26,834 bases of DNA from Rozella allomycis CSF55 (GCA_000442015.1 KE560949.1:62001-88834); one strand, 5' to 3'; shown: positions 7,318 through 14,515, counted from the first letter of the stretch. Numbers and translations: made by a program. Notes: a model not told the origin generated them from the letters alone.

Positions 7318-7417
7318 GCTCCCGTAGCTCAGTTGGTTAGAGCGTGATGCTTATATGGTTCCACCATGTCGAACTCAAGATACGTTGAGGCCACCGGTTC
7401 GAGCCCGGTCGGGAGCA
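7318..7417 (+). tRNA. tRNA-Ile (anticodon TAT) with 26-nt intron at 7356-7381
   Basis: Acceptor stem GCTCCCG/CGGGAGC plus discriminator A. D-arm GCTC-AGTTGGTTA-GAGC. Anticodon loop CT-TAT-A|intron|A. T-arm ACCGG-TTCGAGC-CCGGT. T-rich run downstream. Confidence 0.9.
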
Positions 7418-7676
7418 TTCTTTTCTCAATTTTGCTAATTGCATTTTTCCAAATCACTAACAATAATGCTATTCAATGGCATTCAATTTTCAAAAACGAT
7501 TGTAGAGGCTATAATGTNTTTTGTACTAGATCAGTACGATGAAAGTTACAACAGAGACTTCATTGACCCTATTTGTGGTAAATATCAACCTCCCTCGTAC
7601 GGATCTACCTCTTTTTCGGTTAAGTAGACCATTTTGCATTGGGGAAATAGAAACGCATGTATTTAAATGCACTTAG
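7366..7676 (+). CDS. Possible small spliced protein of unknown function (start and frame uncertain)
   Basis: A typical 28-nt GT-AG intron candidate at 7502-7529 and a + strand AATAAA at 7708-7713. Two open spliced readings: ATG 7366 to TAG 7627 (77 aa) or ATG 7466 to TAG 7676 (about 60 aa). Confidence 0.3.
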
Positions 7677-7740: not shown

Positions 7741-10700
7741 TTAATATATTGAGTAGGATAGTTCATTTTCTTGAGTCTCTATAAAGCATAATGCCTCCTT
7801 ACAGTTGCAATCGTTGACTTTCATTTTTTGTATCACCGTTTCTAACCTTTTAATTAAATTGAAATGTGCAGATTTTCTTGTTCCCATTGAATTTTGATAG
7901 CCATATATTGCTATTCTTACAAACAAAAATAAATTCTATTACACAGTGAAAATGTTCTTTTGAACATTAAATTGTATATTTTTCTTTTGTTTTATTACAC
8001 TATATGCATATTCTATAGATTCAAATAACGCCTTAAAAATGAAGTCTGTATTACAATCTTTATAGACTCGCTTGTTTAATTCCTTAAGGTACAAGTGGAG
8101 TTTTAAACCACACAAGTAAAAATTGAGGTATAAATTTAGGAGCATAATGTTTAAGCTATTCAATTCAGGATCAAAATATAGGGGATGTAGCTTAGACTTT
8201 AGAAACCAATTGTTTTTTGATAAAATATTTTACTGTTTCAATTTGGTTTTAAGTTTTTCTCCAAAATGGTTTCCACATTCGACCGTAAGTGTATCTGCAA
8301 TGTTGAAGCCAACAAATTTAGAATAATCACAAATTACTTCTAAGTTCCTGCAATTTATCTGTAACCCACACCAAGGAAAACCTTTAATAGAATTTGAAAT
8401 AATTTCATACATTCATTTTCAATCACGGAGCACTTCAATTCTGATGATTTATAGTTAACGTAGGTTTTCATTTCCTGGATAAAGCAATTGTATCCAGGAA
8501 AACCTTTTTCTAATCTTTGAACAAATTTATCAACAATATCTTTATCTAGGGAAACGCATATAAAGTCATCAACGTATCGCATGACGAGGCAATTTTTATT
8601 GGCTATAAAATAACTTAAATGCTCTCTGTCCATTGAACCATAGAATAAAGAACACATTAAAGTTGACAAAATGGATCCTTGAGGAACACCGCACTTTTGT
8701 TCATAATAATCTTTGCCAATCTATTAACACATATTGAATTTGTTACCTTTACTAAATTATGTTTCAAATGATTTTCCAAAAGATTCAACAGGGATTCTTT
8801 ATCTTCAATAGGATGTGCAACTTGATCAACAATAATAGCGTTTGATAATTCATTAAACTCCTTGTTAACGAATGCATCGAAAACAGATTTGCAAGCAATA
8901 TCGTCAGCCTCTCTGAAGAATTTGCGTTTGATTTTATCAAAAGATTTACAAACCATAAAATATCTTCTGATCAAATAATAGTCATCATTCAATAATCTAC
9001 TGATGATAGGCAGCAATTTATCGCAGGGAATCGAGTCAAAGCAAGCTCGTACATCTAACTTGGCCATATAAAAACGTTTAAACGTCACAGATTGACAATT
9101 ATTATCATGAAATTTTCTTACTTTGGATCAATCTTACATGAATGAGCAAAGGCTTTCAATCTATCATGTATATCAGACAAACCTAGCACCGAAACTCCAA
9201 GAGACTCTTGTTTCTGAACATTATAAAACATAGTTAATCTTACTTTTTCTTTTAGCAACACACAAAATAGATTTTGAAGCATTGAATTAATCGACATTCC
9301 ATGCGGATTTAATGGATGTTTGTTTGCTATTTCCTTGCAAAGAATTGGCTATTATATGTATACCAAGGGTATTGCGTTCTTCCTTTTAAGATTAACTATT
9401 GGGCGCATCCCGTTTTCTTTAGGTAACAATCTCATAAATGAAAAACCAAGCGTCCTGTTGGCCATGGTGGTCAACGCTTGTTTCTAATCATTTAAAATAT
9501 GAATAGTTACTGTTCGTACAGGCTGATAAAGATCGTTTATGATATTTTCTAACACAGGATTCGACAAGGCAATCCAGACATCGTGTCGAAAATAGAATAT
9601 TCTATGTCGATATGACGTTGTTTCAGTGACATAGAAATGTCCCTTTCATACACGCTTAAATAATTTACTCTGATTAGTGGAATAATAAAGCCATTAAAGA
9701 TCCATTTGAGTAGATTGTGAACAAGTTTTGTGGCACAAGATATTTCTGTCTTTGAGTATTTTGATTTCTCACTAAAGAGCCATTTAAATTCTTTTATTTT
9801 TATCCCTTGCATTATTTCATGCATATCAATAGTCTCCCGTCTTCGTAATGAGACAAAAGTAGAAATCTTTTTGAATAAAACTTTCTTATTGTGTTCTCCT
9901 GTTAATTCAGATGGAATAATCTTCTGATAAACACATATTAAAAATCGAACGACCTTGTTTTCCAATAAATACACATTGTACTTTTTCATAAGGGGTATGT
10001 TCGTTGTTTATTATTGGACAGTATTCATTGAGTAATGGATATGTGTTAGTTTTAGAGGCCTTTATTAGGATTTTTTTAAAGTATTCTGTGCCCTTTTTCA
10101 TCATATTGTTTAGTTTTTTGCACATGAAAACTTGGTTGAGCATAAAATCGATTTCATCGTAATTTGAACAATTAAAAATGTCTATTCAGGCAGCTTGAAT
10201 TATATTACGAGTTTGAGGAAACCCAAAAAGTGGGACATTTTTGTTCAAGAAGGCTGGCCTGGCATAGTAAATCCTGGATCTCTCGATATCTGAATTAGCT
10301 TGATTTTCTTTTTTCGCCTCAACTGGCGGCCCTGTAATTTGGATATAAGCATCTTTCTCTGAGATCTTTCGAAATAGAAATGACTTTGTCAATAATGTAA
10401 TGTAGGGTTCCTCCCCGTATTGTTGGACAAAATTATGCCAAAAAGGTAAAAGCATCATATTTACCAGAGTGTTCGGATTTGTATTTTCTAAAAGCATTTC
10501 AAAGTTCAATGAAGAGCTCTTATCATGACCAGACGATGTGATAATACCTTTTTGAATCCAAGTGTTATTAAATTCTTAGTTCCCTTATTTATTTCTTCCA
10601 GAATACAATTCACAAGCAAATCTTTAAGGGGTATCTTTGATGATTTTATATTCATGTGTGTCAAATTGCCGTACTCTTCTTTTCGTATCACAATCTTGAA

Positions 10701-10796
10701 CTCTTTTGCAAATTCATTATTTGAATATAAGTTGAAAACTTGGGTAAAATCTATAATAACAAACTCTGTTGAATTAAATATAGCTTCCAAAATCAT
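7741..10796 (-). CDS. TERT: Telomerase reverse transcriptase
   Basis: Twelve predicted introns. Motifs in order: GQ (NLITLGF), CP (YPLLNEYCP), T (FYVTETTSYRHRIFYFRHDVW), 1/2 (MRLLPKENGMRPIVN), A (KLDVRACFDSIP), B' (GVPQGSILST), C (MRYVDDFI), E (FPWCGL), CTE (KLHPLYFDPELNS). Two junctions need non-canonical solutions (see findings). Confidence 0.95.

Positions 10797-13026: not shown

Positions 13027-14515
<1,489 letters not shown>

Follow-up and report, generated by a model that had tools for sequence, protein, structure and literature searches.

Two probable GT-TG introns would reconcile the broken reading frames of telomerase reverse transcriptase in Rozella allomycis

In the genome assembly of Rozella allomycis, the gene for telomerase reverse transcriptase (TERT) is interrupted between motif 3 and motif A, and the question raised by this locus is how the two parts of the catalytic domain come to be joined. 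We analyzed the gene within a 26,834-nt stretch of the assembly (GCA_000442015.1, KE560949.1:62001-88834; hereafter "the window", with positions counted from its first nucleotide), which is AT-rich (GC about 0.33) and densely packed with genes. TERT lies on the minus strand (~10796-7741) and is scattered over many short ORFs, single pieces of which matched the Pfam domains Telomerase_RBD (7.6e-28), RVT_1 (1e-09) and TERT_C (1.6e-08) above cut-offs; for the TEN domain there was a weak match only (E 0.033). Its RNA-binding domain, RT motifs and C-terminal extension (Pfam, motif strings) together identify the gene as a telomerase reverse transcriptase.

On the minus strand, the reading frame of motif 3 (...SCKIDPK) closes at AAG TAA (9123-9118), the TAA being part of a GTAAGA donor. 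Motif A (FYMAKLDV, 9073-9050), with its catalytic Asp codon at 9055-9053, is shifted by -1 against motif 3 and can be read in that frame only (ORF 8657..9127, this frame opening after a TGA at 9130-9128). A preliminary description of this DNA had reported such a break and held that no canonical solution bridges it, and our reading of the frames upholds both statements. The three repairs that it proposed are all present, and their junction peptides could be reproduced: a 26-nt GT..TG segment (9121-9096; GTAAGA donor, TG acceptor, last five bases AATTG) giving KIDPNQSVTFK, a 17-nt GT..AG segment (9137-9121) giving AHSLRKFHDNN, and a -1 ribosomal slip giving DPKVRKFHD. To these we add a fourth frame-keeping repair, a 32-nt GT..TG segment (9137-9106) that uses the upstream donor. 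The three-way choice of the preliminary description thus named the right candidates, which are however not equal, the 26-nt GT-TG intron fitting best. We propose that 9121-9096 would be an ordinary-sized 26-nt U2-type spliceosomal intron with a GTAAGA donor and TG in place of AG, that its splicing would connect the exons of motif 3 and motif A via a split Asn codon, and that a second intron of the same type (27 nt, 8233-8207), with an identical AATTG terminus, would occur further along the gene. On this evidence from sequence, TERT probably holds two U2-type GT-TG introns, and its break most likely needs no exotic decoding.

The plausibility of such introns depends on what introns in this genome look like, and we curated 46 of them by coordinates in this one 26.8-kb window, from conserved neighbors (proteasome ATPase, Vps4, G-alpha, cytochrome P450 reductase (CPR) and mitochondrial carrier) and from a scan for ORF-joining GT..AG segments. 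The set was chosen as GT-AG and 22-34 nt long, and the absence of TG endings in 46/46 introns is therefore circular. Their lengths fall within 24-31 nt (one of 24 nt, 13 of 26, eight of 27, ten of 28, nine of 29, three of 30 and two of 31; mode 26), none of the 46 being shorter than 24 nt, and nowhere in the window does a junction call for an intron below 22 nt. Mean GC is 0.25. The donor consensus is G (46/46), T (46/46), A (45/46), A (34/46), preceded by A in 19 introns and by T in four, and position -3 of the intron is A or T in 44/46. Four canonical introns end in AATAG, from which AATTG differs by one base. A YTRAY branch motif occurs in 12/46 introns only and is too degenerate to discriminate. 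To our knowledge, the 24-31 nt range is among the narrowest and shortest for a fungus-related genome. In one fungal compilation that includes R. allomycis, median intron lengths go down to 29 bp (PMC8042348), and a density of 2.5 introns per kb has been given for R. allomycis (PMC8476143). Outside the 2013 genome paper of Rozella, our literature search returned no statement on Rozella intron lengths, on non-canonical splice sites or TG acceptors, or on TERT. Within the window, two in-frame short GT..AG alternatives were seen, of 15 nt (9349-9363, in TERT) and 17 nt (13439-13455, in Vps4), at places where the introns were modelled as 30 and 29 nt; judged from their sequence, these short forms may be used.

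A second break emerged from a scan for orphan donors, in which GTA donors where a long frame closes were tested for removals of 24-31 nt that reopen a long frame, and the resulting list was read by eye, setting aside rows on the non-coding strand and rows beside canonical introns. Only three donors without an AG solution at 24-31 nt were left (9137, 9121 and 8233), all of them in TERT, and two of these, 9121 and 8233, each have a TG solution of 26 or 27 nt that ends in AATTG. The frame broken at 8233 ends in CAG TAA (in-frame TAA 8232-8230), the stop again lying inside the donor (GTAAAA), ahead of the C-terminal extension. The only typical-sized removal is the 27-nt GT..TG segment (8233-8207, GC 0.15), and the next AGs, at donor distances of 37 and 43 nt, do not keep the frame; the nearer one, a canonical AG 10 nt past the TG acceptor at 8207, would give a frame-shifted 37-nt excision (8233-8197) as an unproductive alternative.

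To place both junctions in the protein family, we used the motif-A ORF as query, which retrieved 379 proteins at E <= 0.001 in a full HMMER search (in most of the 150 homologues listed, alignments start at residues 15-19 of the ORF piece). We then aligned 45 of them (800-1400 aa, the first 45 by id from the 150 listed, Rozella model excluded) with Rozella models that had been spliced according to the coordinates. With the 27 nt at 8233-8207 removed, 40/45 of these full-length homologues align without a gap over the 37-column TLTVE-LNS block, and the region within +/-12 residues is gap-free in 35/43 metagenomic TERT loci that span the junction (tblastn; 80 loci searched). Given this fit to homologues and the lack of an in-frame AG, and as far as a comparison of sequences can tell, an acceptor other than AG is required at the 8233 junction. 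Spacing was a weaker guide at 9121-9096, where motif 3 and motif A would be linked by 22 (26-nt intron), 25 (17-nt intron) or 31 residues (frameshift), against a median of 19 in the homologues (range 14-30, n=45); linkers of at least 25 residues occur in 5/45 and of at least 31 in 0/45.

The metagenomic material offered less at the first junction. No relative turned up when metagenomes were scanned with the motif-A ORF piece, and the 80 TERT loci came from a second, alignment-based query. The only AT-rich relative among them, represented by two loci of the same organism (L017 and L008), is intron-free between motifs 3 and A and so does not arbitrate at the Rozella junction. Its sequence does, however, contain a stretch (L017 2181-2205) that matches the window at 9097-9120, i.e., the interior of the 26-nt segment, on the sense strand at 22/24 nt. 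In L017 this stretch is coding (RKFHENN) and lies upstream of motif 3, a different place in the gene from the Rozella junction. Across the whole window, no other stretch matches L017 at 20/21 bases or more; an equal local alignment score was reached by 2/374 other 71-nt windows, and a chance origin is therefore possible. If the match is real, the 26-nt stretch could be, or could once have been, coding, and we count it as evidence against a 26-nt GT-TG intron.

We next consider sequencing data beyond the assembly. TERT is partly present in 6/15 of the sequencing runs listed, none of them as RNA, which has no bearing on expression (a metatranscriptome run, X8, held a 40-nt piece only, <90% alike). 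Four runs were compared, and contigs from two DNA studies cross the junction at a depth of about 250. One of these (X1, 7900-9839) differs from the window by 17 substitutions and one gap, an extra A at 8212/8213, and the other (X2, 7900-9941) by 16 substitutions and no gap; 16/17 and 15/16 of the substitutions were itemized, respectively. Overall, ~1% of sites differ between run contigs and window, and the other alleles at neighboring sites indicate that the contigs represent another haplotype or strain and are no copies of the assembly. Within 9096-9137, neither contig has an indel, and the substitutions (plus-strand 9104 A>G, 9105 T>C and 9133 C>A) leave the frame unrestored and make no AG. 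The preliminary description had named a single-base indel or substitution of this kind as what would overturn its reading, and none is among the changes itemized for either study. Among the changes listed, both TG acceptors are unchanged in both haplotypes, with alternative alleles at 9104/9105/9133 and 8212 carried by the contigs. The extra A of X1 falls inside 8233-8207, where it would be harmless if the segment is an intron and frame-breaking if it is read through.

The same comparison bears on whether the gene is functional. Between window and run contigs, 40 differences were listed (27 further ones exist), of which 10 are intronic (in 332 intron bases), 17 synonymous and 13 non-synonymous; for the RT half (7900-9839), the differences listed comprise eight intronic, six synonymous and three non-synonymous ones. 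Haplotype variants concentrate in the canonical TERT introns. Judged from these sequences, TERT is under purifying selection, and this together with the intact motifs means that the cell must have a way to resolve the breaks.

How, then, would the first break be resolved? The donors at 9121 (GTAAGA) and 8233 (GTAAAA) both match the host U2-type consensus; U12-type introns, whose donors have a TATCCTT-type consensus, were rejected, as neither donor shows it (judged by eye). The lengths of 26 and 27 nt lie inside the host range, the former being its mode. We find that the 26-nt GT-TG intron is the best fit, given host intron length, composition, the base before the donor and the second GT-TG intron in the same gene. 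Its main competitor is a splicing of the canonical 17-nt GT-AG intron (9137-9121), which would be ultra-short, like those known from Stentor, and which we regard as unlikely. That a canonical GT-AG pair is present at the same junction does count against the 26-nt GT-TG intron: the 17-nt segment has a donor that reads GTAAGA in the window and GTAATA in the alternative haplotype, a YTRAY-like branch motif (TTGAT, 7 nt before its end) and a 25-residue linker inside the homologue range, and a further in-frame GT-AG alternative below 20 nt is possible at 9363-9349. However, 17 nt lies 7 nt below the host minimum, as the preliminary description had rightly sensed in calling it far shorter than other introns here, with no curated intron and no other junction in the window needing such a length. 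The segment is moreover exon-like in composition (GC 0.35) where the 26-nt segment is intron-like (GC 0.19), a net difference of 3.5 bits in favor of the 26-nt model, its donor is preceded by T, as in 4/46 introns only, and not by A, as at 9121, and it would leave the break at 8233 to be explained by a second mechanism. The haplotype variants, two in the 26-nt and one in the 17-nt segment, give a rough likelihood ratio of ~1.5 and are roughly neutral between these two models. From sequence features, we infer that the 26-nt option would be taken over the 17-nt one at the 9137-9096 junction and that both TG acceptors would be used by the spliceosome.

Another splice choice, or a TERT that is simply non-functional, is less likely still. 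The 32-nt GT..TG segment (9137-9106) preserves the frame, yet it exceeds the longest curated intron (31 nt) and holds a second perfect donor. A public TERT protein uses a 158-nt skip (9120-8963), but this "intron" is five times the longest one seen here and deletes motif A with the first catalytic Asp, and we rejected it. A defective gene sits poorly with synonymous and intronic changes making up 27 of the 40 differences listed and with other motifs that are intact.

A programmed -1 ribosomal frameshift, in which the TAA would occupy the A site and the Lys tRNA slip from AAG to AAA into the motif-A frame, appears very improbable. The A_AAG sequence would permit P-site re-pairing, the stop codon could pause the ribosome, and the L017 coding match reaches ATTGAT upstream, i.e., it crosses the shift site. 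Frameshifting in telomerase genes also has precedents, the yeast EST3 and Euplotes TERT genes both depending on a +1 shift, and they share with the Rozella gene a telomerase component with two frames to be joined. The preliminary description had drawn this analogy, which our results do not favor: the Rozella shift would be -1, its break lies inside a splice donor, and no frameshift signals were found. More precisely, GAT CCA AAG TAA contains no X XXY YYZ heptamer and allows a single-tRNA A_AAG slip only, and the 97 nt downstream fold with an MFE of -18.1 kcal/mol (z -1.37), which 16/200 shuffles equal (pseudoknots excluded). The 31-residue linker exceeds that of every one of the 45 homologues, and the other haplotype turns the putative Asp codon into Gly through two adjacent substitutions. 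Finally, the stop is located inside a consensus donor here as at 8233, where the break is in-frame, so that a frameshift is inapplicable. As for an assembly or sequencing error at the junction, its probability is close to nil, since contigs of two studies, carrying other alleles nearby and hence no mere copies of the window, cross the site at a depth of about 250 without any indel or any listed change that affects frame or acceptor.

Taking the two GT-TG introns as the preferred reading, we remodelled the TERT coding region (7741..10796, minus strand, stop TAA 7743-7741) as 13 exons and 12 introns, for a protein of 907 aa. The ten canonical introns are located at 10547-10519, 10208-10182, 9981-9954, 9668-9643, 9510-9484, 9363-9334, 9243-9214 (30 nt, within motif 3), 8746-8721, 8410-8382 and 7942-7916. 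Motifs T, 1, 2, A, B', C and E are intact in this spliced model, and with the two GT-TG and ten canonical introns removed, the locus can, as predicted from its sequence, encode a complete TERT with every motif present.

This model departs considerably from the deposited one. The public protein (P0001, 665 aa, annotated as a Rozella allomycis telomerase RBD protein) was the only one at E <= 0.001 among 1275 candidates in a word-based search with the motif-A ORF, and is 97% identical over the covered part. Its annotation ran into the same difficulty: mapped back onto the window for comparison of exons, it jumps from 9121 to 8962, thereby deleting motif A and the catalytic Asp, drops part of motif 2 (9396-9349) as well as 99 nt of open frame in the N-terminal domain (10464-10366), misjoins motif E (8423-8341), and ends at the in-frame TAA 8232-8230, so that the C-terminal extension (detected by Pfam in the next ORF) is missed. 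Measured against homology, it has at least five modelling errors, and the public gene model is wrong. Our reconstruction would thus correct a deposited 665-aa TERT that has neither the first catalytic Asp nor the C-terminal extension. It also illustrates how gene finders that require AG go wrong where nearly all introns of a genome measure 24-31 nt.

Introns of this type have been described before: U2-type GT-TG introns are documented in the human genes GNAS and TSPYL2 (PMC4176328). The human introns resemble the Rozella candidates in having a normal U2-type donor, TG for AG and otherwise ordinary intron features. The Rozella candidates differ in being 26-27 nt long, in belonging to a fungus-related parasite, and in occurring twice in one gene. 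In addition, the human cases are mostly alternative sites beside an AG, whereas the Rozella TG sites, whose usage is deduced from sequence, would be constitutive in appearance, since the only productive form needs them. A survey of TG acceptors reportedly appeared in 2007. Among tiny-intron genomes, very narrow length ranges are familiar, with introns of 15-16 nt in Stentor, about 25 nt in Paramecium, 18-21 nt in the Bigelowiella nucleomorph and 23 nt and up in Encephalitozoon. Rozella shares such a narrow range (24-31 nt, n=46), but its range stops short of 17 nt. For fungi, an analysis of 130 genome annotations discusses minor non-canonical splice sites, and GT-TG and GT-CG are absent from the part of its main text available to us (PMC7072748). 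The Rozella pair would thus represent GT-TG introns of an already known type in a tiny-intron genome, the unusual features being that there are two in TERT and that both are apparently obligatory.

One may ask what two such introns would mean for telomerase. The preliminary description had supposed that an inefficient junction ahead of the first catalytic Asp could limit active TERT, an idea that is speculative but gains interest from a second weak acceptor in the gene. Retention of either intron would place an in-frame TAA at its donor (9121, 8233), a built-in unproductive outcome, and at the second intron the AG 10 nt beyond 8207 would compete, with a 37-nt excision and frameshift as a further unproductive outcome. 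It is tempting to speculate, as a possibility that we hold to be rather doubtful, that the Rozella spliceosome chooses acceptors mainly by how far they lie from the donor and accepts TG, such that the two weak sites would let splicing efficiency set telomerase dosage. A bolder variant is that GT-TG introns may be common genome-wide in the Rozella lineage and systematically mis-annotated. Two TG acceptors in one low-abundance gene would offer a concrete case for splicing-limited expression. The microsporidian relatives of Rozella have reduced spliceosomes, and the candidates described here would be a reason for a survey of non-canonical acceptors in Rozella and these relatives.

Several further observations concern the ends of the gene. 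In the 5' region of TERT (10222-10495 and 10569-10710), two contig forms occur in both DNA studies: one is identical or near-identical to the window (0 and 1 differences), and the other, which differs at 24 of 274 nt and at 8 of 142 nt, corresponds to a second allele that is locally very divergent, contig depths being about 90-95 vs. 153. The apparent TERT start codon (10796, minus strand) lies head to head with the one of cytochrome P450 reductase (plus strand, about 10825; hand-counted), with a gap of only ~28 nt. On the other side of the gene, Rfam gave a 100-nt tRNA match of 52 bits at 7318-7417 on the plus strand, near a single N at 7518; this match was missed by ARAGORN and presumably corresponds to an intron-containing tRNA gene.
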